A stretch of 20,000 nt of DNA from an uncultured virus (IMG/VR IMGVR_UViG_3300016486_001479) (Duplodnaviria; Heunggongvirae; Uroviricota; Caudoviricetes): the IMG/VR virus record IMGVR_UViG_3300016486_001479, one strand, 5' to 3'. Below the pieces are notes generated by a model, which was not told where the DNA came from, searched no databases, and saw only the letters and a program-made list of their open reading frames with translations. The translations under genes were made by a program, and so were the position numbers. This document shows positions 1-14,265 of this stretch, in pieces (the stretch's first letter is position 1; every line of letters begins with the position of its first letter).

Positions 1-351
1 CATTCAAAAGTGAGAGAAAGAGTTACACGAGATGGTTTATCTATCACTCACATGATTGGAAGATATGATTCTGGAAACGGAAGAAGAATTCCACTAAGTG
101 ATATATTAGTCGAAAATTCAACTTACTCTAATATTGCTAGACTGAAAATTAGGTTAGTAAATGAAGGGTTTTTAGAGTATAAATGTGTCAGTTGTAGTAA
201 TGAAGGCGATTGGATGGGTAATCCAATAGTTTTGCAATTAGACCATAAGAACGGAGTTCGTGATGACCATAGGTTGGAAAATTTAAGATTTATGTGTCCT
301 AATTGCCACAGCCAAACAGCAACATTTGGAGGTAAAAACTGTAGAAAATAG
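1..351 (+). CDS. HNH homing endonuclease, 5'-partial (frame is open to the window edge)
   Basis: CxxC (CVSC), LQLDHKNG..DHRLENLRFMCPNCHSQT: classic HNH motif of phage tRNA-cluster-associated endonucleases. Confidence 0.9.
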   Translation, partial: HSKVRERVTRDGLSITHMIGRYDSGNGRRIPLSDILVENSTYSNIARLKIRLVNEGFLEYKCVSCSNEGDWMGNPIVLQLDHKNGVRDDHRLENLRFMCPNCHSQTATFGGKNCRK

Positions 352-377
352 TCAGTTCGAACCCTACTATGCCCACA
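351..377 (+). pseudogene. 3' remnant of a tRNA (T-loop plus acceptor 3' strand)
   Basis: gtcag-TTCGAAC-cctac-tatgccc-aca directly abutting the HNH stop; the T-stem 5' strand is mismatched and no 5' half is visible. Confidence 0.55.
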
Positions 378-389
378 CTACAACTTTAT

Positions 390-518
390 GGGGAGTGTTT
401 TATTACACTTACTCTTTCTAGCGTTACCTGCATAGCAGTGTTGAAGAACAGAGTTACTTCGGTTCAATTTTTTGCTAAACACAAGAATAGATAGGTTCGA
501 TTCCTATACTCCCCACCA
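390..518 (+). ncRNA. tRNA-shaped, circularly permuted Y-RNA-like RNA (copy 1)
   Basis: Acceptor GGGGAGT(390-396)/ACTCCCC(508-514)+ACCA; perfect T-arm ATAGG-TTCGATT-CCTAT; no D or anticodon arm. Instead ACTCTTTCTAGCGTTACCTG-cata-GCAGTGTTGAAGAACAGAGTTACTTCG, a motif repeated at 2243-2293 and 2360-2422. Confidence 0.7.
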
Positions 519-581
519 TCTTGCTATGATGGATTGTGACCAAGAGGGGCCACCCGATGACAATCACAAACAGGGTTTGAC

Positions 582-1358
582 GTGCTCCGAAACGGAGATT
601 TGTTTAATGAGATGCCGATACCAGAGCTAATGCGTATGGTTTCTTCTTTTTCAATTCAAAACATGCTATCCAGAGACGCATTTAAAGCTAGAATGGACCG
701 AGAGCAACCAATTGCTATCCACGAGCTTTTAGTCCCAATTCTTCAAGGCCATGATAGCGTCCATTTGAGGACTGAGATTGAAATTGGAGGTTCAGACCAA
801 TTGTTCAACTTCACCATTGCCAGACGAATGCAAGAACTTGATGGCCAGAAGCCGCAAGTGAGTTTGATGGCTCCAATTATTCGAGGAACAGACGGAAGGA
901 AGATGTTAAAATCATTCGACAACTGTATCTTCCTTGATGGAACCCCAGGAGGCACTTTCGGGGCCTGTATGAGCATATCTGACGCTGTAATGGACGAAGA
1001 GTTCATTCCACTCCTAACAGACCTAAAAACCTTTCCTGAGAGCCCCGTATTGAGAAAGAAAGCTATGGCCAAAGATATTGTTCGCCAGATTCACGGCCAA
1101 GAGGCTGCAGAGCGGGCTCAATCGGGATTCGAGAACCAGGTTCAGAAGAAAGAAATCCCAGCTGTTATTAAAAATATTGAAGCAAAAGACTTGATTCAAG
1201 CTGTAGTTGCAGTCAGAGATTGTAGCAACTCAGCAGCAAGAAGATTGATTTCAGAAGGAGGTGTTCAGGTGGAAGGAGGTGCGGTAACTGAAAACGGCCC
1301 AGTAGAGTCGGGTCAGGTTGTCAAAGTTGGCAAAAGAGAATTCGTTAAGATTTTATAA
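582..1358 (+). CDS. tyrS: Tyrosyl-tRNA synthetase, N-terminally truncated (no HIGH motif)
   Basis: PILQGHDSVHL..EIEIGGSDQLFN, KMLKS (KMSKS-like), C-terminal S4 domain (SNSAARRLISEGGVQV..VKVGKR); in-frame TGA at 558-560 limits upstream extension. Confidence 0.85.
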   Translation: MLRNGDLFNEMPIPELMRMVSSFSIQNMLSRDAFKARMDREQPIAIHELLVPILQGHDSVHLRTEIEIGGSDQLFNFTIARRMQELDGQKPQVSLMAPIIRGTDGRKMLKSFDNCIFLDGTPGGTFGACMSISDAVMDEEFIPLLTDLKTFPESPVLRKKAMAKDIVRQIHGQEAAERAQSGFENQVQKKEIPAVIKNIEAKDLIQAVVAVRDCSNSAARRLISEGGVQVEGGAVTENGPVESGQVVKVGKREFVKIL

Positions 1359-1611
1359 GTATCAACCCCTCTGATTTATTGACCTAATAAGAGCTGTAGA
1401 AACACCATTTATTGATTGAATTTGACTCAGAGTTCTTTGGCTTTTAGATTGAATACCAGATATTGGAGCTATTTCTTGACTATCGGTATAATAAACTTTC
1501 AATGCACAACCACGACTTGCATTGCAATTGGTGTTCCCACACAGAGAGACTTCTATGTCAATCCAAATCTGCCTGGTCACATCTGCCCAGATAGCAGACA
1601 GTCGTTGGGGC
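1132..1611. repeat. ~480-bp direct duplication, copy 1 (copy 2 at 3474-3963)
   Basis: Near-identical sequence from agaaccaggttcag onward; copy 1 accumulates single-base deletions just before the N gap at 1612-1631. Confidence 0.95.
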
Positions 1612-1650
1612 NNNNNNNNNNNNNNNNNNNNTCAAAACAAAACACATTCA

Positions 1651-1776
1651 ATGTTCAACTTTACAGACATAGCGATTTCAAACCAACCGATGCCGATGGC
1701 AGCGACTGGCTGTGCGCCCGATTATAGCGGGAGCAAGCAGAATGACCTGGTTATGTCTAAACTGAACAACAGTTGA
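1651..1776 (+). CDS. Putative 41-aa leader peptide of an attenuator
   Basis: ATG after an A-rich leader; MFNFTDIAISNQPMPMAATGCAPDYSGSKQNDLVMSKLNNS; its 3' end overlaps the antiterminator strand. Confidence 0.6.
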   Translation: MFNFTDIAISNQPMPMAATGCAPDYSGSKQNDLVMSKLNNS

Positions 1777-1817
1777 TGTAGAGACATAAACCATTAGGGA
1801 AAACCCCCAGGTCATTC
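1740..1817 (+). promoter_or_regulatory. Antiterminator hairpin, alternative to the terminator
   Basis: GAATGACCTGG (1740-1750) is an exact copy of the terminator 3' arm (1826-1836) and is complementary to CCAGGTCATTC (1807-1817). TGGTTATGTCT (1748-1758) pairs with AGACATAAACCA (1782-1793). Confidence 0.7.
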
Positions 1818-1847
1818 AATCAAACGAATGACCTGGGGGTTTTTTTT
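1800..1847 (+). terminator. Rho-independent terminator (attenuator) upstream of the tRNA array
   Basis: AAAACCCCCAGGTCATTC-aatcaaac-GAATGACCTGGGGG-T8. Confidence 0.9.
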
Positions 1848-1893
1848 GTTTCTGGACTCAACGGAGCCAGAAGATTAATTGAAATATTAATAT

Positions 1894-1967
1894 CGGGAGG
1901 AAGTGCAGTCAGGTAGCACGGGGCATTTGGGATGCTCAGGTCGAGGGTTCAAATCCCTCTCTCCCGA
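1894..1967 (+). tRNA. tRNA-Pro(UGG)
   Basis: Acceptor CGGGAGG/TCTCCCG, anticodon arm GGGCA-TTTGGGA-TGCTC, T-loop TTCAAAT. Confidence 0.9.
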
Positions 1968-2036
1968 CACAAAGTGTTAGTTTACAAGAGTTTCTAGTAA
2001 ATGTCCACACGAGTAGGAGTTTTTGAAAACAATAAG

Positions 2037-2052
2037 AGTTCTTTGACATATT
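2037..2052 (+). promoter_or_regulatory. boxA-like antitermination site
   Basis: GAGTTCTTTGACATAT resembles rrn boxA; a similar AGTTCTTTGAA precedes the large RNA at 17912. Confidence 0.5.
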
Positions 2053-2120
2053 GATAATAAAGTTAATTAAAAAACCCAAGATATTACACCGATGTAATCG
2101 TCATAATATCTTGGGAAAAT

Positions 2121-2194
2121 GGTGGCGCATCATATTGGCGCATGTTGCCTCCCTGTCACGGAGGAGATTGAGGATTCGAATTCCTTCGTCACCG
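2121..2194 (+). tRNA. tRNA-Asp(GUC), atypical D-arm
   Basis: GGTGGCG/CGTCACC+G, CCTCC-CTGTCAC-GGAGG, T-loop TTCGAAT. Confidence 0.85.
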
Positions 2195-2226
2195 CTTTGG
2201 TGCATTAAAGTACCACAATTTATTAT

Positions 2227-2345
2227 GGGGAGGAATAATTAATACTTTTTCGCTTTTTACCTGGCAACAGTGTTGATAGAAAGAGTTACTTCGAAAATTA
2301 GTATCATAAACTATAATTGCAGATTAAGACCTGCCCTCCCCACCA
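2227..2345 (+). ncRNA. tRNA-shaped, circularly permuted Y-RNA-like RNA (copy 2)
   Basis: Acceptor GGGGAGG/CCTCCCC+ACCA; degenerate T-arm GCAG-attaagac-CTGC; internal TACTTTTTCGCTTTTTACCTG-GCAA-CAGTGTTGATAGAAAGAGTTACTTCG closed by a GNRA tetraloop. Confidence 0.65.
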
Positions 2346-2355
2346 TATTTAAAAA

Positions 2356-2426
2356 TTTTCAGTGTTGAAAGAAGAGTTACTTCGTTATAGGAACATAAAA
2401 TCACTCTTCTTAGAATTACCTGAAAA
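2356..2426 (+). ncRNA. Minimal Y-RNA-like RNA in canonical (non-permuted) order
   Basis: TTTTCAG/CTGAAAA terminal stem, CAGTGTTGAAAGAAGAGTTACTTCG...CACTCTTCTTAGAATTACCTG; AAGAAGAGT/ACTCTTCTT is a perfect 9-bp helix. Confidence 0.65.
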
Positions 2427-2429
2427 AAT

Positions 2430-2503
2430 GGTGGCGCATCATATTGGCGCATGTTGCCTCCCTGTCACGGAGGAGATTGAGGATTCGAATTCCTTCGCTA
2501 CCG
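2430..2503 (+). tRNA. tRNA-Asp(GUC), near-identical paralog of 2121-2194
   Basis: Identical except the acceptor 3' strand CGCTACC vs CGTCACC; both pair. Confidence 0.85.
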
Positions 2504-2550
2504 CCCTTGGTCATTTACGCTTATGACCTTAATAAACAAAAAAACGACAC

Positions 2551-2626
2551 GGTGTGGAGGTGTTGATGGTAACATTTGTCCCTGTCACGGATGAGATTGT
2601 GGGTTCGACTCCCATGCACACCGCCA
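2551..2626 (+). tRNA. tRNA-Asp(GUC) with encoded CCA
   Basis: GGTGTG/CACACC+GCCA, TGTCC-CTGTCAC-GGATG, GTGGG-TTCGACT-CCCAT. Confidence 0.85.
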
Positions 2627-2750
2627 ATTCAATCTTAGGTGCCTTAGGTAGCCGAGTCGCTTCGTCAGCGAAAAAGGACTCACTGAGATGTAGGCGCATT
2701 GAGCGTCGCATTAAAGGCTTGGGGATGACGCCCTGAGATTGATTGTTTAT

Positions 2751-2825
2751 GGGGTTGAAGCATGTGCTGGCTAATGCATCTGTCTGGCAGACAGAAGACC
2801 GTGGGTTCAATTCCCATCTTCTCCA
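2751..2825 (+). tRNA. tRNA-Ala(GGC)
   Basis: TCTGT-CTGGCAG-ACAGA; G3:U70 Ala determinant present; two U-U mismatches in the acceptor stem. Confidence 0.8.
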
Positions 2826-2918
2826 CAATAAAAGATTAAAGAAAACAGGATATGCGACGAGCGTCTGGTGGGTATTCCCCTCATCAGGTTAAGCCGTTGG
2901 GGAACATGTCCTGCTAAT

Positions 2919-2993
2919 GGGGATGTAGCTCAATTGGCTGAGCGGCTGCCTTGCACGTAGCGTCGTATGTGGGTTCGAGTCCCATCATCTCCA
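2919..2993 (+). tRNA. tRNA-Ala(UGC)
   Basis: GGGGATG/CATCTCC+A with G3:U70, canonical D-arm, GCTGC-CTTGCAC-GTAGC, TTCGAGT T-loop. Confidence 0.92.
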
Positions 2994-3097
2994 CAAATTC
3001 CAAAACGGCTCGAATCCGTTGCAGAGAGAAGGCCTCTACTCTGCCCAGTTGTTCGCGACATGCTGGTCCTTGGTTGGTGAGGAATCAATTTTTAAAT

Positions 3098-3187
3098 GGG
3101 AGTGAGGCAACTATCGGTTGTGTTGTGCCAGGTTGTAACCCTGGTCCCTCTGGGTAAACGTTGGGGGTTCGAGTCCCTCCACTCTCA
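3098..3187 (+). tRNA. tRNA-Tyr(GUA)
   Basis: GGGAGTG/CACTCTC+A, CCAGG-TTGTAAC-CCTGG, long variable arm CCC-TCT-GGG. Confidence 0.85.
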
Positions 3188-3251
3188 CATGGCAGTCATG
3201 CCACTTTCTTCGGAAGTAACCTCAATAGGGGTTGTGAAAAATGACTATTAT

Positions 3252-3342
3252 GGAAGTGAGGTCGACTATCGGTTGTGTCGCACTAGACTGTAAATCTAGT
3301 CCCTTTGGGTAAACAATGGGGGTTCGAGCCCCTCCGCTTCCA
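3252..3342 (+). tRNA. tRNA-Tyr(GUA)
   Basis: GGAAGTG/CGCTTCC+A, CTAGA-CTGTAAA-TCTAG, variable arm CCC-TTT-GGG. Confidence 0.88.
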
Positions 3343-3473
3343 CTTTGATTTCATAAACAAAAGTAACAGTTATGAAATCTTTGTTACTTTTGTAGTCTAT
3401 TTATAGTAAATTAAAAACTTGTGAGTAGAAAAGGAAAGGTTGACCTACAGTCAGTAAGTGATTTTAAAGTCAT

Positions 3474-3963
3474 AGAACCAGGTTCAGAAGAAAGAAATCC
3501 CAGCTGTTATTAAAAATATTGAAGCAAAAGACTTGATTCAAGCTGTAGTTGCAGTCAGAGATTGTAGCAACTCAGCAGCAAGAAGATTGATTTCAGAAGG
3601 AGGTGTTCAGGTGGAAGGAGGTGCGGTAACTGAAAACGGCCCAGTAGAGTCGGGTCAGGTTGTCAAAGTTGGCAAAAGAGAATTCGTTAAGATTTTATAA
3701 GTATCAACCCCTCTGATTTATTGACCTAATAAGAGCTGTAGAAACACCATTTATTGATTGAATTTGACTCGGAGTTCTTTGGCTTTTAGATTGAATACCA
3801 GATATTGGAGCTATTTCTTGACTATCGGTATAATAAACTTTCAATGCACAACCACGACTTGCAATTGCAATTGGTGTTCCCACAACAGAAGAGACTTCTA
3901 TGTCAAATCCAAAATCTGCCTGGTCACCATCTGCCCAAGATAAGCCAGACAAGTCGTTGGGGC
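3474..3963. repeat. Direct duplication copy 2 (tyrS 3' end plus 3' part of the 3704-4336 gene)
   Basis: Matches 1132-1611; this copy keeps the minus-strand gene in frame. Confidence 0.95.
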
Positions 3964-4336
3964 CTCCGAGTGTGCCGCCGTAGTAATCGTTCCCACCAAC
4001 AAAAGTGTTTGTGTAAAGTATGTTTGAGTATGCTGTTCCATTATACAGGCGAATATTATAAGTTGCCTCTTCATTGGCTCCAGTGGAGCCAGCTGTCCCA
4101 ATCGCATTAGATGACGTGCTTCCCGTTAAAACTAATTCTACGCCGTCTATGGTGGCGCCTTCTGGAATCTGAGAGGAATCAAAACAGTTATACCAAGTAT
4201 TCCGTCTATTAGCTGATACAGTAAAGGCAACAGAAGAACCCGCTTGATTTCTGTGTAAACGGATTGCTTGACCCCAAGAACTTGACCTCCCAGGCACAAA
4301 ATTTGAAAGAGGTCCCAAAGTTAATGTCTCAGCCAT
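3704..4336 (-). CDS. Hypothetical protein, probably virion-associated (start re-assigned to ATG 4336)
   Basis: G/S/T-rich beta-type sequence; MAETLTLG start overlaps the methyltransferase stop (coupling). Confidence 0.7.
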   Translation of the reverse strand: MAETLTLGPLSNFVPGRSSSWGQAIRLHRNQAGSSVAFTVSANRRNTWYNCFDSSQIPEGATIDGVELVLTGSTSSNAIGTAGSTGANEEATYNIRLYNGTAYSNILYTNTFVGGNDYYGGTLGGPNDLSGLSWADGDQADFGFDIEVSSVVGTPIAIASRGCALKVYYTDSQEIAPISGIQSKSQRTPSQIQSINGVSTALIRSINQRG

Positions 4337-4886
4337 GATGGGTATATTTAGGCATGTGATACTCCTTATGGTTAAAGTAATCATTCTGAGGAGGGTTCAC
4401 ATGCAGTGTTTCAAACTCTACATTTTTAAACTTATGCTCATTCCAGTCTCTAGGAAGATTGTTCCACCAAGTCACTTTAGCTTGGTCATTGCATATTTTA
4501 GGAATCAATTTTTTAAAACTACTTGCCTTTGCATCAAGGTATGTATCAAAAAACACTCCATCATAAGCCTCAAGAAGCTCTCTATTCTCCCACCAACACC
4601 CAGTAATGATTTTAACATTTTCTCTATTATCTGCCCATTCTTCCAATAATGGAATTACTTCTGAATGAATCTCACATATAGTATGCGATTTAATGTGGTG
4701 CTGTTGTATAAAATTAGCTGATATTCCCATGCCAAATCCCATTTCTATTATATCACCTCCGTCTTGACAAACAAAATTTGCCACATGCTGCATGATAGGA
4801 GACTCCCATTCATGCATAACAATGTTGCCTCCTTCAGTTTGAATGCTCTCTTTGTTAAATAATATTTTTGAGTCTTTATAAATCAT
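4329..4886 (-). CDS. SAM-dependent methyltransferase, GAMT/Rmt2-like
   Basis: VMHEWESPIM, motif I IIEMGFGMGIS, HTICEIH, YDGVFFDTY. Confidence 0.85.
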   Translation of the reverse strand: MIYKDSKILFNKESIQTEGGNIVMHEWESPIMQHVANFVCQDGGDIIEMGFGMGISANFIQQHHIKSHTICEIHSEVIPLLEEWADNRENVKIITGCWWENRELLEAYDGVFFDTYLDAKASSFKKLIPKICNDQAKVTWWNNLPRDWNEHKFKNVEFETLHVNPPQNDYFNHKEYHMPKYTHHG

Positions 4887-6235
4887 GAAATAACAAAATA
4901 ATCATGGCTTGGGTTAAAATAGATACTATAATAAGCGCTTCTGCCAGAAGAAAAGTCCTCTATAAAATGTCCAACCGCCCTAACAACGGCCCCAGATGTT
5001 GTTGGTGGAGCAAATGTGAATTTAGACGTTGATTCACTTAGGTAAATAGTGCCCCCAGTAACAGCAGTGCCATCAAAGTTTGAAGAATCAATTAACACAA
5101 TCCCACTAGCTAGCATGCCTGGGTTGTCCGAAGACGTAGTTTGCGCCATACCAAGAAAACCTATTGAGGTTCCAGACGCAGAAGCATCTGCTTGATTCCA
5201 AGTTCCGTTTGTAGACAAGTAATAAACTCCTCCAGCTGAGACAGCTGTTGTTCGAGTCGTCCTAATTAATATAGGATTCTCTGTGGCCTCATTTAATGTT
5301 GTGTAATTAACTAAATTTGTTACCCAACCAGCAGCATCTCCTGCTCCTCTAAACAACGCCGAAAGGTCTGTTCCTCCAGAAGATATTGTTGTTGTCGCGT
5401 TTATTGAGCCCGTCACAACCAAAGCTGACCCATTGAAAGTTAGGTTGGATTCTCCATTTATACCGTTTGCGGCAGTCGAAGTTATAATCCGATTATCAGC
5501 TCCATTAGTGTATGTGGACAAAGGGCCTGCGGCGTTTGAAAACAACACCGAAAGGTCTGTTCCTCCAGAAGATATTGTTGTTGTCGCGTTTATTGAGCCT
5601 GTCACAACCAAAGCTGACCCATTGAAAGTTAGGTTGGATTCTCCATTTATACCGTTTGCGGAAGTCGAAGTTATAATGCGATTATCAGCTCCATTGGTGT
5701 ATGTGGACAAAGGACCTGCGGCGTTTGAAAACAACACCGAAAGGTCTGTTCCTCCAGAATATATTCTTGTTGTCGCGTTTATTGAGCCTGTCACAACCAA
5801 AGCTGACCCATTGAAAGTTAGGTTGGATTCTCCATTTATACCGTTTGCGGAAGTCGAAGTTATAATGCGATTATCAGCTCCATTGGTGTATGTGGACAAA
5901 GGGCCTGCGGCGTTTGAAAACAACACCGAAAGGTCTGTTCCTCCAGAAGATATTCTTGTTGTCGCGTTTATTGAACCCATCTCAACTGGGCTTGTAAAGT
6001 CTACATCTCCTTTAAACAATACACCACCATTTACAATCCCGCCAGCAATCGGCAGATATTCACCAGGTGTTGTGGAGCCAGTCCCAATAAACTGAGTCTG
6101 AGAAACGCTTTGACCCTGGTCCCCACGAACCTCCATCAACCCATTTTGGTCCAAAGTCAAATAGTATTGACCCTGCTTCGGTTTAACAAAGCTATTGTCT
6201 CGTGGGTCTTTATAATATATGTATCCTTTTCTCAT
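4883..6235 (-). CDS. Tail-fibre/virion-like protein with 63-aa tandem repeats
   Basis: YLPIAGG and NGADNRIITST..INGESNLTFNG motifs typical of phage fibre proteins; ATGA overlap with the next gene. Confidence 0.75.
   Translation of the reverse strand: MRKGYIYYKDPRDNSFVKPKQGQYYLTLDQNGLMEVRGDQGQSVSQTQFIGTGSTTPGEYLPIAGGIVNGGVLFKGDVDFTSPVEMGSINATTRISSGGTDLSVLFSNAAGPLSTYTNGADNRIITSTSANGINGESNLTFNGSALVVTGSINATTRIYSGGTDLSVLFSNAAGPLSTYTNGADNRIITSTSANGINGESNLTFNGSALVVTGSINATTTISSGGTDLSVLFSNAAGPLSTYTNGADNRIITSTAANGINGESNLTFNGSALVVTGSINATTTISSGGTDLSALFRGAGDAAGWVTNLVNYTTLNEATENPILIRTTRTTAVSAGGVYYLSTNGTWNQADASASGTSIGFLGMAQTTSSDNPGMLASGIVLIDSSNFDGTAVTGGTIYLSESTSKFTFAPPTTSGAVVRAVGHFIEDFSSGRSAYYSIYFNPSHDYFVIS
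5351..5974. repeat. 189-bp tandem repeat, ~3.3 copies, in frame
   Basis: gaaaggtctg recurs at 5361, 5550, 5739 and 5928. Confidence 0.95.
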
Positions 6236-6454
6236 GGAAGTAAGCTTCTTTTTATAAATAGTTTGAAACCTTTTCTTTAATTCAGCGCATATCTAAATTA
6301 CTCACTGCGTTACTAATCTTGTGAGTAATCAGAGTGTTAATTATAATTAACCGACCCATACCTTAACTGTAAAGGTTCATCGTTAGTATTTCACAATCGG
6401 TCTACAAGGTAAAACTTTTCATGATTAATGATTATTTATAAGAAACATCATCTT

Positions 6455-7288
6455 ATGAAAAAAATCATATTATTTGTAGCATTTGCCCTTCTTGTGACCC
6501 AAGGTTGCCAGAAGGAAGTGTTTGAAGAAATACCTTTTTCTCAAGCAGAAAATAAGGAATATCAAATCACATTTGAGACTCCTGAAGAAATGGCTGTGTG
6601 GTTCAATGACAAACTTGATGAGGTAAGATTTGATGCCGAAATGTTTGAAGAAGCATTCGCTAGAAGTCGAAGACCTCTTTGTTATAATACTGAAGATTTG
6701 CTTAGTTTTATTTCTCAGTACAGAACAAGAGTTCCAGATTTCATTCCAGTATGGAATAATTATTTTCAAGACGTAAACTGTTTTGACTCACGGTGGGAAT
6801 TTTTCCTGTACGAAAGACAGCAGGACGGCACAGCTCCACCTCCTGCAGTTACTGAATTGGTAGATAATGTTGAATGGAATGTTTCAGGAGCCATAGTTAA
6901 TACAGATGGGGATTTACAGTTTGCCACTTATTTCATAACGGAGGGTGACACAATTCTTAACCCAAACTGTCCAGGGACATTTCAGCCACCATGCAATGGG
7001 GCACATGAAGTCGTTGTGACTGTTACAGTTGGAGGAGCGACCTACCAAAGGTCCAATATTAGCTTTGGCCGAGTAAACAACGTCCCTGCATCTATAGCCC
7101 CGCTATGCACTGAATTAACCGTTTCGGATATAACAGATTCTGGTCAGTTTGACCAGGATTGCCCCTGCCCTACTGTGTTTGATAGTTATGAATTCTTGTT
7201 GGATTCAGGTCTTGAATGGGATTTGGACAATGATGGAGTAGTAGAGCTTCTAGATTTGCTAATATTCTTTGAGAATTACGGCTGTTAA
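6455..7288 (+). CDS. Lipoprotein with C-terminal dockerin/EF-hand-like motif (start re-assigned to ATG 6455)
   Basis: Lipobox signal MKKIILFVAFALLVTQG|CQKE; C-terminal DLDNDGVVELLDLLIFFENYG; TATTTATA just upstream. Confidence 0.7.
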   Translation: MKKIILFVAFALLVTQGCQKEVFEEIPFSQAENKEYQITFETPEEMAVWFNDKLDEVRFDAEMFEEAFARSRRPLCYNTEDLLSFISQYRTRVPDFIPVWNNYFQDVNCFDSRWEFFLYERQQDGTAPPPAVTELVDNVEWNVSGAIVNTDGDLQFATYFITEGDTILNPNCPGTFQPPCNGAHEVVVTVTVGGATYQRSNISFGRVNNVPASIAPLCTELTVSDITDSGQFDQDCPCPTVFDSYEFLLDSGLEWDLDNDGVVELLDLLIFFENYGC

Positions 7289-7312
7289 ACACAATGGCTA
7301 CACAAGGTTAAG

Positions 7313-7335
7313 AACCCTCTTCGGAGGGTTTTTTT
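7313..7335 (+). terminator. Rho-independent terminator
   Basis: AACCCTC-TTCG-GAGGGTT followed by a T tract. Confidence 0.9.
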
Positions 7336-7398
7336 GTTTTACACAAATTATTTTTTAGTTTTTGAAACCAAAATAAAAATTCATCGTATATTAAAACG

Positions 7399-8046
7399 AT
7401 GAAATTCAACAACAGAGACAATGAAGTCGTAGAAGCAAAAGATGGACGCAAATTCTGGAACTCTAGAAGCTGTGCAGTAACGTCAATTGTGATAATGCGA
7501 GTAGGCAAGTGGTACCAGAGAAAGAAGTATTTCCTACTGACCACTCTAAGAGGTAAAGACACACCTGACTTTCAAGGTTATAGATGTTGCCCATGCGGGT
7601 ACTTAGATTGGGATGAGCCACTTCATTACGCAGCCGTTAGAGAGACAGAAGAAGAAACCACGTTCAACCCAATCGACGCTTGGTCATCCAAGACGTATCC
7701 ACTTGATTCTAATGATGATAATTCTAAAAGAGTCAAGATGGGGCTGATTTATGAGAAATATCGAAACGGGCAGCCATTCTATTTAAGTTCGGAGCCATCT
7801 GCGAACAAGCAGAATGTCACAGCTTGCTTCGGAGTGGTGTTTTCAATTCCTGACGAAGAAAGCTTACCGTTGATTAGCGGAGCAAATGTAAACAAGGCAG
7901 ATTTTGAAGAAGTAGCATCCGCAGAATGGACACCTTTTGAAGAGGTAAAGTCCAAAAAGCATAAGTTTGCCTTCAATCACGACAATAGAGCATTGAGTTT
8001 TTTCGATATCTACAAAGCCGCACAAAGTTGGCGGAAACCGTGGTAA
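7399..8046 (+). CDS. Nudix hydrolase (ADP-ribose pyrophosphatase-like)
   Basis: Nudix box GYLDWDEPLHYAAVRETEEETT; C-terminal FAFNH. Confidence 0.85.
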   Translation: MKFNNRDNEVVEAKDGRKFWNSRSCAVTSIVIMRVGKWYQRKKYFLLTTLRGKDTPDFQGYRCCPCGYLDWDEPLHYAAVRETEEETTFNPIDAWSSKTYPLDSNDDNSKRVKMGLIYEKYRNGQPFYLSSEPSANKQNVTACFGVVFSIPDEESLPLISGANVNKADFEEVASAEWTPFEEVKSKKHKFAFNHDNRALSFFDIYKAAQSWRKPW

Positions 8047-8095
8047 AAGAGTTTAAATTATTGTAGCTAACGGATAAATACAAACAAAACTTAAC

Positions 8096-8290
8096 ATGGA
8101 AGAAATAACAATTTACAAATATCAATTAGAAAAGATAAAAGAAGCGTTGAGATTAACAAAGAACATTTATGTAAACAATAAAGATGGCGAAGAAACTTGC
8201 TATGATAGACAAGTGAAATTAGCAGCTTTATATGCTGAGAATGCTTTAAACAACGATAAGGATAAGAAAGTTGATTATATGGGTAATTAG
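8096..8290 (+). CDS. Hypothetical 64-aa phage protein
   Basis: AT-rich ORF with A-rich leader. Confidence 0.65.
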   Translation: MEEITIYKYQLEKIKEALRLTKNIYVNNKDGEETCYDRQVKLAALYAENALNNDKDKKVDYMGN

Positions 8291-8404
8291 CAGTTATTGC
8301 TTACAACGATTTCAACGTAGACTGGGATTCAAAGATTCGATAACTCTAAATCTTACAGCGCAAAAATGATGTATTTTTCACCAAAACAAGTTCAAACATA
8401 AATT

Positions 8405-10552
8405 ATGAGACGAGTACTAATGTTTCTGTTGTTAACAGCAAGTTTTCCTTTGTTTTCACAAACAGACACGACTATTCAAAAAATCGAAATAGCGACTGTG
8501 ACTGCGTATCGCGCAGACCTCAGAGCACCTGTGACATTTAAGAACATCGATAAACAAGAAATCGATAAGGTGAATATGGGTCAAGAGCCGACGGCAATAT
8601 TAAATTACACACCGTCTGTTACAGCTACATCAGACGGAGGAAACTTCTTTGGGTACTCCAGTTTTAGAATTAGAGGAATTGACCAAACCAGAGTCAATGT
8701 GACGCTAGATGGCATCCCTTTAAACGAGCCAGAAGACCAAGGGCTCTATTTCAACAATTATCCAGACTTTTTTAACTCTGTGAGTTCAATTCAAATTCAA
8801 AGAGGCGTTGGAACGTCATCAAACGGAGTGTCTGCATTTGGCGGAAGCATTAACATGACGTCCGCTGACATTTTCGCCCCAAAAAGCCTAGGAGGCGGAT
8901 TTGGGTACGGCTCATTTGGAACTGGTCGGATATATGCGGAATACAACACTGGAAAGAGTGAAAAGGGTTACGGAGCCTATGTTAGAGTTTCCAGCATTGC
9001 AACCGATGGCTTCGTTGATAACGCAAGTCACTTTGGGAAGTCTGCATTTTACGGCGTCGGAAGACAATGGGGTGACAACACGCTGAAGCTGGTTGGATTT
9101 ATTGGAAATCAAGAGAATGGAATGGCCTGGTTGGGTGCGACTCAAGAAATGCTTAACGAATCCCCAACAACCAACGGAAACACTATAGATGAAGACGACA
9201 ACTTCACAAACAGCCTAACATCACTTCAGTACACAAAGTTGACTGGAAACACTAGAGTGAATGCCACAGCTTATTATAGTTACCTAAACGGGAACTATGA
9301 CATCAACCTACGTAACTTTGGAATAGAAGCTTCTCAGAACATTGCATTGCTTCATCATTATTACGGAGGACTTGTTAATGTCACACACTACCTAGACAAG
9401 TTCCAAGTAACATATGGTGTGCATGGAAACCAATTTGACAGACGTCACACAGGTTCTTCCGATATTCCAAACGCAGAAGCGGAAACTGATTCTGATACTC
9501 CAGAATCGGAAATTGATTCTGGTACTCCAGAAACAGAAATTGATTCTAACATTCCAGAATCGGAAATTGATTCTGGTACTCCAGAAACAGAAATTGATTC
9601 TAACATTCTGCCACCTCCATTTAGAAATTATGTGAATACTGGAAACAGACAGACGTTTAGTGGATTTGCGAAAGCAAGCTATGAAATAGGGAAGCTTCGT
9701 CTTTATGGGGACATTCAACAAAGACTAACGAGTTTCACTTATGAAGGAAATCAAGAAATGCCTACACAAGACTGGGCTTTCTTAAACTATCGTGGTGGAG
9801 CAAACTACGAAATAAACAAAAGATACAGCGTTTACTACAGTTACGGCAAAACATCCCGTGAACCAACTAGAAATGATTTGTTTATGGGGAATGATAATTT
9901 AGATTTATCTCTTTACAACGGTGGGATATTTCAAGAAATAACACCAGAAACCGTGCAGGACCATGAGTTGGGGATTAAATTTAACTCAGGTAAATTAGAC
10001 TTTCAAATCAACGGCTACTTTATGGGCTTCGAAAACGAAATCACCCTCTTAGGCGCTATTGGTCCAAACGGATTACAGCTTAGCGGAAACGTAGACAACT
10101 CCTACCGTTCTGGGGTGGAGCTAGACCTAGGCTATAAAGCAACAGAGAGACTAAAATTTACAGCACAACTGACACAGTCTCAAAACAGAATTACTCAAGA
10201 CGATGTGGAGTTCAATCACGTATTGACCCCGAACACCATAGCAAACGCAAGTGTGGAGTACGACATAAAAGACTTCACGTTGGGTATGAGTACAAAATAC
10301 CAAGGAGAAGCGTATTTAGACCTGGCCAACACAGAGCAGATTGATGGGTTTAGTTTATTGAATTTAAGAGCGACTTACCACGCGGAGAGTACAATAGACT
10401 TTTCTTTATTTTTGAACAACGTCACCAATCAAGTTTATAACGCCAGTGGATACACGGTTGATTATGGAGACGGTGGTGTATCCGCTGATGAAGTGAGGTA
10501 TTTTAGGCAAGCAGGATTCAACGCATTTGTGAGCATATCAGTCAAGATTTGA
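8405..10552 (+). CDS. TonB-dependent outer-membrane receptor (vitamin/nicotinamide-riboside uptake type)
   Basis: Signal peptide, plug motifs IRGIDQTRVNVTLDGIPLN and IQIQRGVGTSSNG..GGSIN, beta-barrel ending NNVTNQVY...ISVKI; coupled to pnuC. Confidence 0.92.
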   Translation: MRRVLMFLLLTASFPLFSQTDTTIQKIEIATVTAYRADLRAPVTFKNIDKQEIDKVNMGQEPTAILNYTPSVTATSDGGNFFGYSSFRIRGIDQTRVNVTLDGIPLNEPEDQGLYFNNYPDFFNSVSSIQIQRGVGTSSNGVSAFGGSINMTSADIFAPKSLGGGFGYGSFGTGRIYAEYNTGKSEKGYGAYVRVSSIATDGFVDNASHFGKSAFYGVGRQWGDNTLKLVGFIGNQENGMAWLGATQEMLNESPTTNGNTIDEDDNFTNSLTSLQYTKLTGNTRVNATAYYSYLNGNYDINLRNFGIEASQNIALLHHYYGGLVNVTHYLDKFQVTYGVHGNQFDRRHTGSSDIPNAEAETDSDTPESEIDSGTPETEIDSNIPESEIDSGTPETEIDSNILPPPFRNYVNTGNRQTFSGFAKASYEIGKLRLYGDIQQRLTSFTYEGNQEMPTQDWAFLNYRGGANYEINKRYSVYYSYGKTSREPTRNDLFMGNDNLDLSLYNGGIFQEITPETVQDHELGIKFNSGKLDFQINGYFMGFENEITLLGAIGPNGLQLSGNVDNSYRSGVELDLGYKATERLKFTAQLTQSQNRITQDDVEFNHVLTPNTIANASVEYDIKDFTLGMSTKYQGEAYLDLANTEQIDGFSLLNLRATYHAESTIDFSLFLNNVTNQVYNASGYTVDYGDGGVSADEVRYFRQAGFNAFVSISVKI
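9482..9609 (+). repeat. 27-bp (9-aa) tandem repeat, ~5 copies, within the TonB receptor
   Basis: ETDSDTPES EIDSGTPET EIDSNIPES EIDSGTPET EIDSNIL. Confidence 0.9.
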
Positions 10553-11193
10553 AAGAATTATTTGACATAGAAAATGTGCTTATTGACTTCGGACTCTATC
10601 AACTGAGCTACCTAGAGACCATCGGGACCATCTTCGGACTGGTTTGCGTGTGGCTCGCAGCAAAAGGAAATAGGCACACTTGGACCACTGGCATAGTGTC
10701 AGCTAGTGCGTTTTTTTATCTGTTCTATCAGATAGCTCTTTACTCAGATATGTTTCTGCAGGGCTTCTTCTCCATTACCAGCATATTTGGCTGGTTTATG
10801 TGGAAGCATAAAAAGCATGAAACCCCAATAACCACAGTTAATTTAAAGCATCGATTATTTTTTATGATGCTTATTGTGGTCGCTAGTGTGATATTGGCGA
10901 AACAAATTCAGACTATTCACGTATATTATAGTAGCTGGTTTCCAGAGCCAGCTGCATTCCCTGTAGCTGACGCATTCACAACAGTGTTAAGTGTGGCAGC
11001 TACTTTCTTGTTAATGAATAAGAAACTGGAAGCATGGATTCTCTGGATTATAGTTGACATAATTTCCATCTGGATTTATTTCCAAAAAAGAGTTTGGCTA
11101 GTAGGGGTTGAGTATTGCATATTCTTGTGCATAGCTACTTACGGCGGATACAGATGGTTTAAAATACTGCAAAATGATAAAAGAGATACTTGA
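10549..11193 (+). CDS. pnuC: Nicotinamide riboside transporter PnuC
   Basis: Multi-TM; LETIGTIFGLVCVWL, LYSDMFLQ, DAFTTVLSVAATFLL..KKLEAWILWIIVD. Confidence 0.9.
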   Translation: MKELFDIENVLIDFGLYQLSYLETIGTIFGLVCVWLAAKGNRHTWTTGIVSASAFFYLFYQIALYSDMFLQGFFSITSIFGWFMWKHKKHETPITTVNLKHRLFFMMLIVVASVILAKQIQTIHVYYSSWFPEPAAFPVADAFTTVLSVAATFLLMNKKLEAWILWIIVDIISIWIYFQKRVWLVGVEYCIFLCIATYGGYRWFKILQNDKRDT

Positions 11194-12592
11194 CCAGATT
11201 GCTCAAGAGCCAGGAGACAACGCCAAAGTTGACATCCTGACTTCACACCAAGAAAACACCTTGCTTCAAGAGGTTCTTTATAACGCTCTTTCAAAGCGAG
11301 TTAAGTTTTACATCAAACAGATTCCAAGTTATTCCAGCAATGGAAAAAACATGGGAGTCTCGTGGGGGTTAGAGCAGCTCAAAGAGTTATCCAGGAAAGG
11401 CGGTATAAGAGGCTCTGTGGCAGTTTCACACCTAGCTTATATATTGGCTTCGCTTAGTGATGATGATGCGTATGTCATCGAAAGGATAATTGATAAGCGC
11501 CCAAAGATTGATATGGGTCGAACTCAAATTAACAAAGTGTTCAAAGACCTTATTGAGAAGACTCCTTATATGGGAGCTAAGTCATATGCTGAAAACCTTG
11601 TTAGAGCCATCTTGAAATCAGGCAGAGCAATCAGTCAAATCAAAATGGATGGCCGTTACGCCAATGCTATCATTCGTGGTGGTGAGATTGAACTTGAGTC
11701 TCGTGCTGGAGAACCAACTGTATTAACTGGCGCAGCATTTCTGGAAGAACTTCGAGTCCTGACAGATGAATATGTCCTCAACGGCGAGTTGACTGTGAGA
11801 GGTGTCCCTGCTAGGTCAATAGCCAATGGAATTGTTGCCTCGCTAATAGACATTCAGAAAAAGCGAGAAGACCGTGGCCCCGCAGAAACTTTAAAGAAAG
11901 AGCAAGCATTCTTGAAGAAGCACGCAACCGATTTTGGAACTCCTGATATGAGTTTTCAAAATGCGCTTGATGCAATTGTGTATACGTGTTGGGACATGAT
12001 TACTGTAGATGAATACTACGACAAAAAGTCAACTAGACCATACGAAGAACGTCTTGCTCAATTAGAGGCGATTATTAAAGAAAAGCAGCCAACACGAATT
12101 GACCTGATTGAGTCTCGAATCGTAACGACGTTCAGAGAAGCGATGGAACACTTTCAGGAAGCTCTGGCGTTAGATTTGGAAGGAACAATCGTGAAAGACC
12201 TGGAAGGAGCCTGGAAGGACGGAAAGCCGAATTGGCAAGTGAAAATGAAGCTTGACATGAACATCGACCTAAAAACTGTTCGATATCTATACGGTAATGA
12301 AGGAACGAAAAACGAGAATGTCATCTCAAGAATTGAACTCGCGAGCTCGTGTGGGCTTTTAAAGACAACGTCGTCCAACATGGATGAAGATATGATGACA
12401 TATGTCACTGAAAACCAGGAGGAGCTTAAAGATGCTATTTGGGAAGTGAACTGTAAAGGCTTGAGTCAAAACTCAAAAGGAGAGTGGTCTCTTGCGCATC
12501 CATCTATTGTTAAGGAGCGTGATGATAAAACCACATTTAACTCCCTAGAGGAGGCTAAAGAAATCGAAGAGGCAGCAAAGAGCATTGTATGA
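11174..12592 (+). CDS. ATP-dependent DNA ligase (T4 gp30-like)
   Basis: Motif I KMDGRY, III LNGEL, IIIa YTCWD, IV EGTIVK, V KMK; N-terminal DNA-binding domain. Confidence 0.9.
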   Translation: MIKEILDQIAQEPGDNAKVDILTSHQENTLLQEVLYNALSKRVKFYIKQIPSYSSNGKNMGVSWGLEQLKELSRKGGIRGSVAVSHLAYILASLSDDDAYVIERIIDKRPKIDMGRTQINKVFKDLIEKTPYMGAKSYAENLVRAILKSGRAISQIKMDGRYANAIIRGGEIELESRAGEPTVLTGAAFLEELRVLTDEYVLNGELTVRGVPARSIANGIVASLIDIQKKREDRGPAETLKKEQAFLKKHATDFGTPDMSFQNALDAIVYTCWDMITVDEYYDKKSTRPYEERLAQLEAIIKEKQPTRIDLIESRIVTTFREAMEHFQEALALDLEGTIVKDLEGAWKDGKPNWQVKMKLDMNIDLKTVRYLYGNEGTKNENVISRIELASSCGLLKTTSSNMDEDMMTYVTENQEELKDAIWEVNCKGLSQNSKGEWSLAHPSIVKERDDKTTFNSLEEAKEIEEAAKSIV

Positions 12593-12770
12593 TTACAATC
12601 CTATGAGTTGCAAACGATTAAGATAGGTTTTTGTACATATTTATATGATTTAGCGCAAAACTCACTCATTACTTTTGCGTGGGTGAGGTGTAAGCTTTTT
12701 TTTTGTATATTTAAAAATAAGTTCTACATAAAGTGATGAAATATCACGTAAAAACACAAAGTTAACGATT

Positions 12771-13178
12771 ATGAACAAACATATTCTATTAAAAGAAGGC
12801 TTAACTATGCATAACGTTAAGCTTGACACAAAGCAGGCAGCTCGTCCACCAGCTCCACCAGCTCCGCCATCTCGTCCACCAGCTCCGCCATCTCGTCCTC
12901 CAGCTCGTCCTCCAGCTCGTCCTCCAGCTCGTCCTCCATCTCGTCCTCCATCTCGTCCTCCATCTCGTCCACCAGCTCCTCCAGCTCGTCCTCCATCTCG
13001 TCCACCAGCTCCTCCATCTCGTCCTCCATCTCGTCCACCAGCTCCTCCAGCTCGTCCTCCATCTCGTCCACCAGCTCCTCCAGCTCGTCCTCCATCTCGT
13101 CCACCAGCTCCTCCAGCTCGTCCTCCATCTCGNNNNNNNNNNNNNNNNNNNNNNNNNATTTGTTATACTAACATATAA
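12771..13178 (+). CDS. Possible Pro-rich low-complexity protein (length unreliable)
   Basis: ATG with A-rich leader and promoter-like TATATTT upstream; spans the gap. Confidence 0.35.
12838..13132. repeat. Low-complexity 9-nt-based tandem repeat (CCAGCTCGT/CCATCTCGT/CCT) running into an N gap
   Basis: Open in several frames (Pro-rich on +, E/D-rich on -); gap at 13133-13157. Confidence 0.9.
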
Positions 13179-13248
13179 TTGGAAATAAAATTTAATGCTG
13201 CGTGAAACTTTGTTATTTATTTTTCGTATTTTTCAAAAAGAACATTAT

Positions 13249-14265
13249 ATGAAAAAGTATAAGCGAGGATTAATACTAGGTAAGTTCATGCCAATCACAA
13301 AAGGCCATGAAGCACTTATAGATTACGGCCTTAAGCTTTGTGAGGAAATTATATTGTTGATTTGCACGACTCCGAATGAACCAATCCCAGGCGAGCTTCG
13401 CTATGAATGGGTGCGCCAGATTTATCGAGATAAGCCAGTCATTCCTCTTCATCTTGTATTCGATGAAAGAGACTTGGCCTCAACAAGCGTCCCAGCAAAA
13501 GACATCTCCAAACAGTGGGCAGAACATATTAAATGGTTTATTCCTGAGGTGGACGTTTTTATCTCTTCAGAAAAGTATGGAGAAATGGTTGCGGGGTATA
13601 TGGGGGTGGAGAATGAGTATTTCGACTTAAAAAGGGTGACGGTGGACATATCTGCGACTGAAATACGACAGAATCCATATCTGCACTGGGAAATGCTTTC
13701 TCAACCAATTCAAGACTATTTCTTTAAGAAAGTCATACTGGTGGGAACGGAGTCCACTGGAAAAACAGAGCTAGCTAAACGATTATCTAAGACTTTCAAT
13801 TCAGATTGGGTTCATGAGGTCGGTAGAGACATTGTGCCAGACGCAAGTGCTTGTACAAAAAAAGATTTAATGCGTATAGCTAAGGAGCACGCAAAGAACA
13901 TTATAATTGCGGAACAGAAACGAAATAGAATTCTATTCATTGATACAGATATCAATATCACCAGGTCATACTTTGCGTATATCTTTAAAGAAGACATGCG
14001 AGTGGACGAGTGGATGAAAACAGCTAATAAAGGAGATTTATACCTTTACCTGGAAGCGGACGCTGAATATGTCCAAGATGGAACGAGGCTACCTAAAAGA
14101 GAGCGACTCATACTCGACAAGAGCCACAAGGAGCAGTTAGCATCCCAGGGGATTCAATATTTTAGTGTATTCGGTAAGGATTGGAAAGAAAGAGAAGAAA
14201 TGGCGATGGATATCATCTGCCGACAAATACTACTCCCGAACACAATCAACAAATTAGATAATTGA
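13249..14265 (+). CDS. nadR: Bifunctional NMN adenylyltransferase / ribosylnicotinamide kinase NadR (no HTH; start re-assigned to ATG 13249)
   Basis: GKFMPITKGH (HxGH-type), SSEKYG, ISATEIR, P-loop GTESTGKT, FIDTD, YVQDGTR. Confidence 0.92.
   Translation: MKKYKRGLILGKFMPITKGHEALIDYGLKLCEEIILLICTTPNEPIPGELRYEWVRQIYRDKPVIPLHLVFDERDLASTSVPAKDISKQWAEHIKWFIPEVDVFISSEKYGEMVAGYMGVENEYFDLKRVTVDISATEIRQNPYLHWEMLSQPIQDYFFKKVILVGTESTGKTELAKRLSKTFNSDWVHEVGRDIVPDASACTKKDLMRIAKEHAKNIIIAEQKRNRILFIDTDINITRSYFAYIFKEDMRVDEWMKTANKGDLYLYLEADAEYVQDGTRLPKRERLILDKSHKEQLASQGIQYFSVFGKDWKEREEMAMDIICRQILLPNTINKLDN

Follow-up and report, generated by a model that had tools for sequence, protein, structure and literature searches.

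The DNA analysed here, called the window, is a stretch of 20,000 nucleotides (nt) from an uncultured virus of the Caudoviricetes (IMG/VR record IMGVR_UViG_3300016486_001479). Near its left end lies a short leader open reading frame (ORF), followed by an intrinsic terminator and, 46 nt past the T tract of the latter, by the first gene of a transfer RNA (tRNA) array. As sequence and predicted folds suggest, the unit formed by leader and terminator probably acts as a transcription attenuator of the ribosome-mediated, leader-peptide type, with a promoter on one side and the phage tRNA array on the other. A sequence-only reading of the window had proposed such an attenuator, responding to a general failure of translation and associated with a tyrS gene. 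Its ORF, antiterminator and terminator were all found again, and conserved base pairs and the recurrence of the unit elsewhere were added in its favour; the tyrS and promoter context and the idea of general sensing fared less well.

Leader, terminator and alternative hairpin

The features of the unit are listed in Table 1. The strong terminator announced after the leader is present: its arms form a perfect 18-nt inverted repeat (1800-1817 and 1826-1843), and the segment 1795-1848, folded alone, reaches -36.1 kcal/mol. The 11-mer GAATGACCTGG of its 3′ arm (1826-1836) is found a second time at 1740-1750, in the end of the leader ORF, with its complement at 1807-1817. This exact copy, already pointed out from the sequence, is beyond chance, three matches being counted in the window for 0.02 expected, a number reached in none of 200 shuffles. 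The copy and the nucleotides next to it (1740-1758) can pair with 1782-1789 and 1807-1817 into the alternative hairpin that had been described across the stop codon, hereafter 2:3, of -30.2 kcal/mol. Since region 3 includes the 5′ arm of the terminator (3:4), the two structures are alternatives. Region 1, near the start of the ORF, can pair with region 2 in turn (1:2), and its 7-mer AGACATA recurs at 1782-1788. Folding of the whole region 1632-1860 gave a z of -6.69, and none of 200 shuffles was as stable.

Table 1. Coordinates of the features discussed (window positions unless another sequence is named).
Feature	Position	Strand	Details
Misplaced scaffold piece	1..1611	+	3′ part of HNH endonuclease gene, Y-like/tRNA-like elements, truncated tyrS-like ORF (582-1358), repeat (1132-1611)
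N run	1612..1631		scaffold misjoin rather than small sequencing gap (4/4 gap-free assemblies)
Promoter (predicted)	L014 5540-5573		conserved block: AAAAACTTG, 20 nt, then TATTTTTG
End of 5′ untranslated region (UTR)	1634..1650	+	last 17 nt, A-rich, without Shine-Dalgarno-like run
Leader ORF	1651..1776	+	ATG 1651, TGA 1774-1776, 41 codons: MFNFTDIAISNQPMPMAATGCAPDYSGSKQNDLVMSKLNNS
Region 1	1659..1673	+	1665-1673 (AGACATAGC) pairs with 1750-1758 in folds of transcripts too short to include region 3
Candidate regulatory codons	1687..1725	+	codons 13-25, PMPMAATGCAPDY, 8/13 Pro/Ala/Asp/Tyr, between regions 1 and 2
Region 2	1740..1758	+	11-nt copy 1740-1750 plus TTATGTCT 1751-1758
Region 3	1782..1817	+	1782-1789 pairs with 1751-1758; 1807-1817 pairs with 1740-1750; 1798-1817 is the terminator 5′ arm
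Intrinsic terminator	1798..1847	+	20-pair stem 1798-1845 (9 G-C), loop 1818-1825 (8 nt), T8 1840-1847
Conserved block	1849..1874	+	26 nt, 3 differences with L017, between terminator and tRNA-Pro
tRNA array	1894..3341	+	Pro(UGG), two Asp-like, Asp(GUC), Ala(GGC), Ala(UGC), Tyr(GUA) x2, Y-like repeats between
Leader-2 ORF	L175 7348..7265	minus	27 codons, MKTLPNINWSSSRWSSRKNLGPDRVMR; same phage
Module CAGTGTTGA..AGAGTTACTTCG	436-461, 2268-2293, 2360-2384; L017 5940-5965, 6350-6375
Motif AGTTCTTTGA(C/A)(A/G)T(A/G)TTGG	2035-2055; L017 5604-5625; L175 ~7095-7078 (minus); L028 3948-3965
Element AAAAACTT(G/T)TG	3413-3426; L014 5540-5553; L175 7487-7479 (minus); L012 ~5508-5524; L029 3484-3500

The 41-codon leader ORF is real in the sense that it stands alone, with 41 amino acids (aa), in the gap-free assembly L001. 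The copy in the window looks longer (1522..1776), as its frame runs through an N gap; an in-frame stop upstream in L001 ruled out that the leader is merely what the gap left of the end of a longer gene. Start, frame and stop are kept in all five homologues, namely the window, the related locus L017 and three peptides found in databases (P0001-P0003, 88-93% alignment identity). Indels inside the ORF measure 3, 3 and 6 nt, with one extra codon in P0003, and those in the 5′ UTR 14 and 13 nt. The leader peptide matched no Pfam family. An open frame that is kept, a peptide that drifts and nucleotides that are constrained make up the pattern of a regulatory leader, which is suggestive and not a proof.

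L017 comes from another metagenome. The protein encoded next to its leader, of 137 aa in the window type, is 69% identical, and the same leader-terminator unit is followed there by two tRNA-Pro and one tRNA-Asp. In the alignment of the two leaders (A3), 19 of the 78 positions between 1740 and 1817 differ, 4 of them among the 38 positions of the helix and 15 among the 40 outside it. The four helix changes compensate each other two by two, at 1742:1815 (A-U to G-C) and 1751:1789 (U-A to G-C), so that all 19 core pairs of 2:3 stay standard; in simulations, this outcome had a probability of 1e-4, or of 0.003 given four helix substitutions. One base changed in region 3 of L017 keeps its pairing with region 2 and loses that with the 3′ arm of the terminator, of which the two top pairs are broken. 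We conclude that the complementarity of regions 2 and 3 is itself selected, rather than being a mere duplication of the 3′ arm. As to conservation of the duplicated arm, which had been named as a point to look at in relatives, what L017 keeps is the complementarity with region 3 and not the copy of the 3′ arm. The pairing of region 1 with region 2 is kept for 8 of 9 pairs, none of them covarying, and the stretches GACATAGCGATTTCA and CAACCGATGCCGATGGCA of the leader have not a single substitution.

Further relatives were searched for in several ways. A protein-pattern scan with the alignment of leader peptides (A1) returned the same phage only, and a scan of genome contigs with a second alignment (A2) gave no match. 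The DNA patterns CARCCNATGCCNATGGC and TTTCTATTTTTGCCTCG had at least 120 and 12 matches, respectively, among which a BLAST screen left only the phage itself as related. A hit of the 22-nt core pattern in one metagenome-assembled genome of Faecousia was discarded as a chance match, surrounded by unrelated sequence. INPHARED phages had nothing in common with the region beyond tRNA-sized pieces.

Transcripts of increasing length were folded to follow the nascent RNA. Both the window type and L017 went through the same series, 1:2, then 2:3, then 3:4 together with 1:2. Once the 5′ arm of the terminator has emerged, 2:3 is the minimum-energy fold, at -57.0 vs -46.5 kcal/mol in the window and -85.9 vs -74.5 kcal/mol in L017. 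When region 1 was omitted, 2:3 stayed the minimum until position 1833 in the window and 5356 in L017, where nearly the whole 3′ arm is exposed. The barrier for refolding from 2:3 to the terminator was estimated at 9.7 kcal/mol for the window and 16.3 kcal/mol for L017.

Leaders before other tRNA clusters and their codons

The 141-kb viral contig L001/G002, a gap-free assembly of the same phage, contains two further tRNA clusters, on the same strand. One of them is preceded by a second leader (Table 1) with a predicted promoter, AAAAACTTGG..TATCTTTG. Its region 2 (CCTAGGGC) is complementary to the 5′ arm of a terminator ending in T7, the stop codon lies within the hairpin, and folding passes through 1:2, 2:3 and 3:4 as it does in the window, the estimated barrier being 9.9 kcal/mol. 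Beyond the terminator come two elements resembling the tRNA-Sec model (35.0 and 28.7 bits for a threshold of 47) with anticodon loop UGA, then Ser(GCU), Ser(GGA), Arg(UCU), Trp(CCA), Arg(UCU) and Arg(CCU). We infer that the UGA loops would serve the TCG and TCA codons of leader-2. A comparison with Rfam of the window leader and leader-2 returned only sub-threshold noise. No T-box was matched at the gathering score or with E up to 1.

Of 27 metagenome loci, those read in detail were L028, L029 and L033, for their tRNAs, and L014 to L017, for their similarity with the leader; L033, which shares its contig with the viral locus L012, and L019, nearly a duplicate of L018, had no separate analysis. 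Distant phages, in which the homologue of the 137-aa protein is 45-47% identical, provided two more leaders. Leader-3 (L012/L029) is an ORF of 18 codons, MSHDDNKSRFKRVCYDVS, whose hairpin across the stop overlaps the terminator; a tRNA-like gene follows, then an array of Ser, Lys, His, Asp, Asn, Val, Phe and Met tRNAs. Leader-4 (L028/L029) has 23 codons, three of them ATA, and its terminator is followed after 10 nt by a tRNA-Ile(UAU). Altogether, the unit of leader, hairpin and terminator was present before four of the five tRNA clusters examined, in two distant phage lineages, its three-state layout recurring from one cluster to another.

The codons of each leader were then compared with the tRNAs encoded behind it. 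Leader-2 carries the run WSSSRWSSR, and 11 of its 26 codons are for Trp, Ser or Arg (background 0.131, p 0.0002). For leader-3, 13 codons of 17 match its array (background 0.438, p 0.007), and for the L017 leader 15 of 41 (p 0.008). Each leader matched its own array best, and when leaders were compared with foreign arrays all eight tests gave p > 0.05 (0.054-0.91). In the central segments of the leaders of relatives, the changes are mostly gains of Ala, Tyr or Asp. As far as codon counts tell, the match between codons and tRNAs is strong for the family of leaders, and weak for the window leader alone. The absence of a run of one amino acid had been taken as a sign of a general sensor; in view of the wealth of Pro, Ala, Asp and Tyr in codons 13-25 of the window leader and of the run in leader-2, this deduction is probably wrong.

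Promoter, gene order and content of the array

Misassembled at its left end, the window lacks the promoter together with ~42 nt at the start of the 5′ UTR. Four gap-free assemblies of the same phage were available: L001/G002, which is 100% identical to the window over 1634-3480, L014, a metagenome contig of 447 kb, L015 and L016. In all four, a spacer of 222 nt following the gene for the 137-aa protein sits 5′ of window position 1634, and farther upstream are genes for a ClpB-like ATPase, a DUF3228 protein and a 95-aa protein, all on the same strand. Positions 1-1611 of the window belong elsewhere. In L014 the order is leader and tRNA array (5620-7460, window 1634-3474), 69 nt, window 1-1611 (7530-9150), then window 3474 onward (8661-10411 for window 3474-5224). 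Window 1132-1611 is a 480-nt duplicate of 3474-3963, and homopolymer errors adjoin the N run. The surroundings of the leader were therefore misread before: closing the gap at 1612-1631 had been expected to reveal a promoter past tyrS, and what lies upstream in reality is the gene of 137 aa and a conserved promoter block.

The tyrS gene, placed upstream of the leader by the sequence-only reading, comes after the array in the 447-kb assembly. It matches PF00579, the profile of class-I W/Y synthetases, over positions 90-288 of 292 and nowhere else; what is missing is a stretch of ~90 positions at its beginning, the part that would contain the HIGH motif, and a weak S4 domain is kept. No N-terminal part was seen nearby, and the ORF, which adjoins the HNH endonuclease, would be a gene fragment or one piece of a split gene. 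A deletion variant lacking window 1-1131, and with it most of the tyrS-like ORF, was found in L015, in G002 and in one contig of run X24; the two genotypes co-occur in samples. A screen of contigs from four runs (Logan) showed the junction of the deletion and no variant of the leader. From the order in L014, the partial profile match and the deletion variant, it follows that the tyrS-like ORF is downstream, truncated and dispensable.

The block AAAAACTTGTGAGTTC..TTTCTATTTTTGCCTCGTATTTATT upstream of the leader is almost invariant between the window type and L017, and the 5′ UTR that follows it varies. It fits the sigma-A pattern of Bacteroidota, TTG, ~20 nt, TAnnTTTG, the latter being the consensus of the Flavobacterium -7 box, at -12 to -5, according to PMC9723704. 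From the upstream gene to the end of the array, each of the two phages has one site with perfect TTG and TAnnTTTG, and it lies upstream of the leader. The block was also found on other contigs of the same samples (the four runs above) before a different sequence, and is therefore portable. In 1846-1893, between terminator and tRNA-Pro, scans detected neither a sigma-70-type site nor a perfect TTG/TAnnTTTG site, both scans being blind to other promoter types. The boxA-like sites suggested in this interval found no echo: by eye, the conserved block at 1849-1874 does not resemble the consensus, no model having been run.

Both lineages have an element, AAAAACTT(G/T)TG followed by ..CTT.., in front of their leaders, and it recurs before the HNH gene; a shared promoter, of which it would be the upstream half, is the probable explanation. 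As to the host of this giant phage, it is probably a member of the Bacteroidota, judging by the named cellular homologues of the TonB-dependent receptor of the phage, nearly all of which are from this phylum. The receptor and the ORFs beside it lie within window 8405-14265, and these neighbours, to judge by their translations, appear to resemble PnuC, DNA ligase and NadR. A proline-rich repeat ORF (window 12771-13178) runs into a second N gap.

The tRNA array expected downstream of the terminator is present. ARAGORN found six tRNAs up to 3341, starting with the tRNA-Pro at 1894. It does not report two near-identical tRNA-Asp-like genes, at 2121-2194 and 2430-2503 (L014 6416-6489), which score 35.8 and 35.5 bits with Rfam and have an anticodon loop CTGTCAC. 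The module CAGTGTTGA..AGAGTTACTTCG is repeated beside 3′ halves resembling those of tRNAs, and corresponds to the elements previously called Y-like RNAs. That identity is putative. No Rfam Y-RNA match was obtained with these elements at the gathering score or with E up to 1. Among the proteins of the phage there is one resembling TROVE/Ro60 (54.6 bits, in an open frame of 562 aa, G002 51548-52306), its gene lying ~47 kb away from the array; G002 yielded no RtcB. In PMC4201824, the YrlA candidates reported are only those within 4 kb of Ro60.

Some observations on these clusters are independent of the leaders. The motif AGTTCTTTGA(C/A)(A/G)T(A/G)TTGG stands directly after the first tRNA or tRNA-like gene in both lineages, ~20 nt before the next. 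It may perhaps play a role in processing; a promoter of the next tRNA was rejected, the motif being too close to that tRNA. In the cluster behind leader-2, two protein genes are inserted on the minus strand, at L175 4528-5547 (339-aa ORF) and 5897-6721 (274-aa ORF). The first presumably resembles an RNA ligase in its N-terminus, and the second looks like a homing endonuclease. Between a 136-aa gene and the tRNA-Arg(CCU), ~560 nt (L175 3290-3850, minus) have no long ORF and no Rfam family at gathering score. The third cluster of the contig includes a tRNA of 66.2 bits with anticodon TTA (L176 6381-6453, G002 ~44381-44453, minus), which from its anticodon would read the stop codon UAA, making it a possible suppressor tRNA.

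Proposed mechanism, rival readings and known systems

If the unit is an attenuator, it could work as follows. During smooth translation, the ribosome would unwind region 2 and come to rest on the stop codon, in the apical part of 2:3; with 2:3 prevented, 3:4 would form and transcription would stop. A ribosome stalled between regions 1 and 2, at codons ~5-25, would block 1:2 and leave region 2 free. Region 2 could then capture the 5′ arm of the terminator while the 3′ arm is still to be transcribed, and the polymerase would continue into the tRNAs. The likeliest signal would be that aminoacyl-tRNAs of the kinds encoded in the operon itself (Pro, Ala, Asp, Tyr) run short, and the outcome an expression of phage tRNAs driven by demand, as might arise if the tRNAs of the host were cleaved, too few or poorly matched. 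Whether cognate tRNAs are sensed, rather than translation in general, is a question on which we stand close to the middle; the family evidence is what makes us favour the cognate tRNAs.

Several points weigh against an attenuator, or against this version of it. The start site, termination and read-through are all predictions from sequence and folds, and the coupling of transcription and translation in the probable host is presumed. Equilibrium folds of the whole transcript gave the terminator in all ten combinations of ribosome mask and transcript length. In the folding check proposed earlier, with and without masking, the prefix folds yield the series 1:2, 2:3, 3:4, and the masked equilibrium folds yield the terminator throughout. 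As equilibrium folds always give the terminator, any antitermination must be kinetic, as in classical cases, and folds with masked ribosome footprints are no test of the model. On the kinetic side, the barrier of ~10 kcal/mol computed for the window type is modest. The idea that a ribosome at the end of the leader masks the antiterminator strand holds only in part, as we infer that such a ribosome would cover ~1759-1789, or 1751-1758 and 1782-1789, and not the 11-mer, which lies 24-34 nt upstream of the stop.

Other reservations concern the ORF and the comparison. No purifying selection on the peptide was detected, substitutions being spread 4/6/5 over codon positions 1/2/3, with ~2 synonymous vs 9 non-synonymous changes. 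In the leader of both phages two more frames are open, one of them antisense and the other sense, and the in-frame indels do not tell sense from antisense. Relatives devoid of the ORF are invisible to a protein search, an ascertainment bias. The comparison of the window leader with its relative involves two independent DNA sequences, and a shuffle control on the pairs, in which 122 of 500 shuffles reached the observed values, has no power at n=2. In the codon analysis, the match of the window leader with its own array is not significant (11 of 40 codons for Pro, Ala, Asp or Tyr, background 0.195, p 0.14; 10 of 40 at the codon level, p 0.19). A scan for clustering in codons 13-25 gave p 0.013 for the 8 of 13 in the window and p 0.0003 for 10 of 13 in L017, with a scan width of 13 codons picked post hoc. 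The three ATA codons among the 22 of leader-4 (background 0.047) gave p 0.084. No leader was found before the fifth cluster, in L176, which comprises two tRNA-Leu and the tRNA with a UUA anticodon.

The promoter, too, leaves room for objection. In the 141-kb contig, TTG-N18-21-TAnnTTTG shows no enrichment (23 matches vs 16 in the control); the motif is too loose for an enrichment on the scale of the genome. The longer motif CTTGTGAG...TAnnTTTG occurs a single time. In L017 a -7 box with one mismatch (AAAATTTG, 5391) directly precedes the tRNA-Pro, and a phage-specific promoter after the terminator is possible.

A first rival would keep the same hardware and make it a sensor of general translation failure with no codon specificity, the likeness of codons and tRNAs being a coincidence. 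In both phages 2:3 is the minimum of the untranslated transcript, by ~10-11 kcal/mol over the 1:2 state, as such a sensor would have it, and the window leader, with its non-significant codon enrichment, has no tandem run of one codon. The p values of leader-2 and leader-3, the failure of all eight foreign arrays and the direction of the changes in the central segments argue the other way. Moreover, a switch that works purely by the absence of ribosomes would have no use for region 1, conserved as it is and able to pair with region 2. We consider this rival unlikely.

A second one separates the unit from the array. The ~255 nt bracketed by the conserved promoter and the very strong terminator would be a small gene or RNA of its own, the array would have its own unrecognised promoter, and 2:3 would serve the stability of the mRNA or the translational control of the ORF. 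The 26-nt conserved block after the terminator, the near-consensus box of L017 and the existence of phage promoter types outside both scans would all suit it. It leaves unexplained the compensatory changes in 2:3 while the top pairs of the terminator decay, the same layout before four of five tRNA clusters in two distant lineages, and the codon match; and a small protein gene is hard to reconcile with a peptide that has neither purifying selection nor a Pfam match. It appears to us quite improbable. A switch made of RNA only, be it similar to a riboswitch or a binder of tRNA in the manner of T-boxes, with an incidental ORF, would account for the lack of selection on the peptide, for nucleotide conservation in the ORF that includes third codon positions (as in the unchanged GACATAGCGATTTCA and CAACCGATGCCGATGGCA) and for two internal hairpins kept or lengthened by indels, but it is hardly credible given that no Rfam family, T-box included, matches with E up to 1, that all indels are multiples of three with start and stop codons kept, and that the four unrelated leaders share only the design of an ORF plus helices and the codon match, features for which an aptamer would give no reason.

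If leader-peptide attenuation is retained, the leaders may form a family of phage attenuators responding to tRNA demand, with each cluster behind a leader that calls for its own tRNAs, a generalisation for which the case is evenly poised. The same even balance applies to the list of what they would call for: Pro/Ala/Asp/Tyr; Trp/Ser/Arg; Ser/His/Asp/Asn/Lys/Phe/Val; and AUA for tRNA-Ile(UAU). By stalling, the ribosome would then report which tRNA is missing, whether the cause is starvation, an anticodon nuclease of the host or a mismatch between phage and host codons, and the exact replacement set would be transcribed, in a feedback loop acting on the tRNA genes themselves.

Why phages carry tRNA genes is a long-standing question, to which the current answers are codon compensation and escape from tRNA-cleaving defences; to our knowledge, hardly anything is known of how their expression is controlled. 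A literature search, mostly at abstract level, found no description of tRNA genes under attenuator control. If the present reading is true, expression of phage tRNAs would be conditional and self-correcting, the codons of a leader would give a hint, readable from sequence, of the host tRNAs that the phage expects to lose, and a textbook bacterial mechanism would extend to tRNA genes, to phages and to expression signals of the Bacteroidota type. It also suggests a rule for surveys of large phages, namely to look in front of tRNA clusters for a terminator with a hairpin that competes with it and a short ORF whose codons correspond to the anticodons downstream.

Leader-peptide attenuators are known from the trp, his, pheA, thr, leu and ilv operons of enterobacteria. 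As in these, the phage unit has a short ORF after the promoter, alternative 1:2, 2:3 and 3:4 structures in which regions 2 and 4 share sequence, a terminator ~70 nt past the leader stop, and candidate codons for the commodity in or just after region 1, most clearly in leader-2. It differs from them in that it would control tRNAs, the sensed molecule then belonging to the class of its own products, rather than biosynthetic enzymes; in that several amino acids are mixed in one leader; in that the stop codon lies inside 2:3, downstream of region 2 rather than before it; and in its setting, a phage with a Bacteroidota-type promoter and no Shine-Dalgarno. Strong hints of leader-peptide attenuation upstream of amino-acid operons of Flavobacterium are given in PMC9723704.

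A T-box riboswitch resembles the phage unit in that a shortage of charged tRNA flips a terminator to an antiterminator before translation-related genes; no T-box was matched here, and sensing would go through a translating ribosome instead of direct tRNA binding. In E. coli the pheST operon, for an aminoacyl-tRNA synthetase, is under a Phe-rich leader, pheM. There also attenuation bears on the translation apparatus, and in the long variant of the phage a tyrS-like fragment stands at the far end of the array; in the phage, however, the tRNAs would be gated directly and the tyrS-like ORF is truncated and dispensable. The antibiotic-resistance gene vmlR of Bacillus subtilis is reported to have a ribosome-mediated attenuator (PMC9226507). 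Its short leader ORF, in which ribosome stalling sets the choice between terminator and antiterminator, comes closest to the general-translation-failure version discussed above; there drug-stalled ribosomes gate a resistance protein, whereas the phage leaders appear to be codon-matched to tRNAs. Finally, phage tRNAs can act as counter-defence against host systems that cleave tRNAs, which would be a reason for a phage to sense tRNA shortage, and Tyr and Asp tRNAs are among those of the present array. Phage T5 opposes the PtuAB of retron-Eco7 with a tRNA-Tyr under a strong promoter, according to PMC11555353. Such counter-defence tRNAs are described as constitutive or strongly promoted, whereas those described here would be placed behind an attenuator that senses the need for them.

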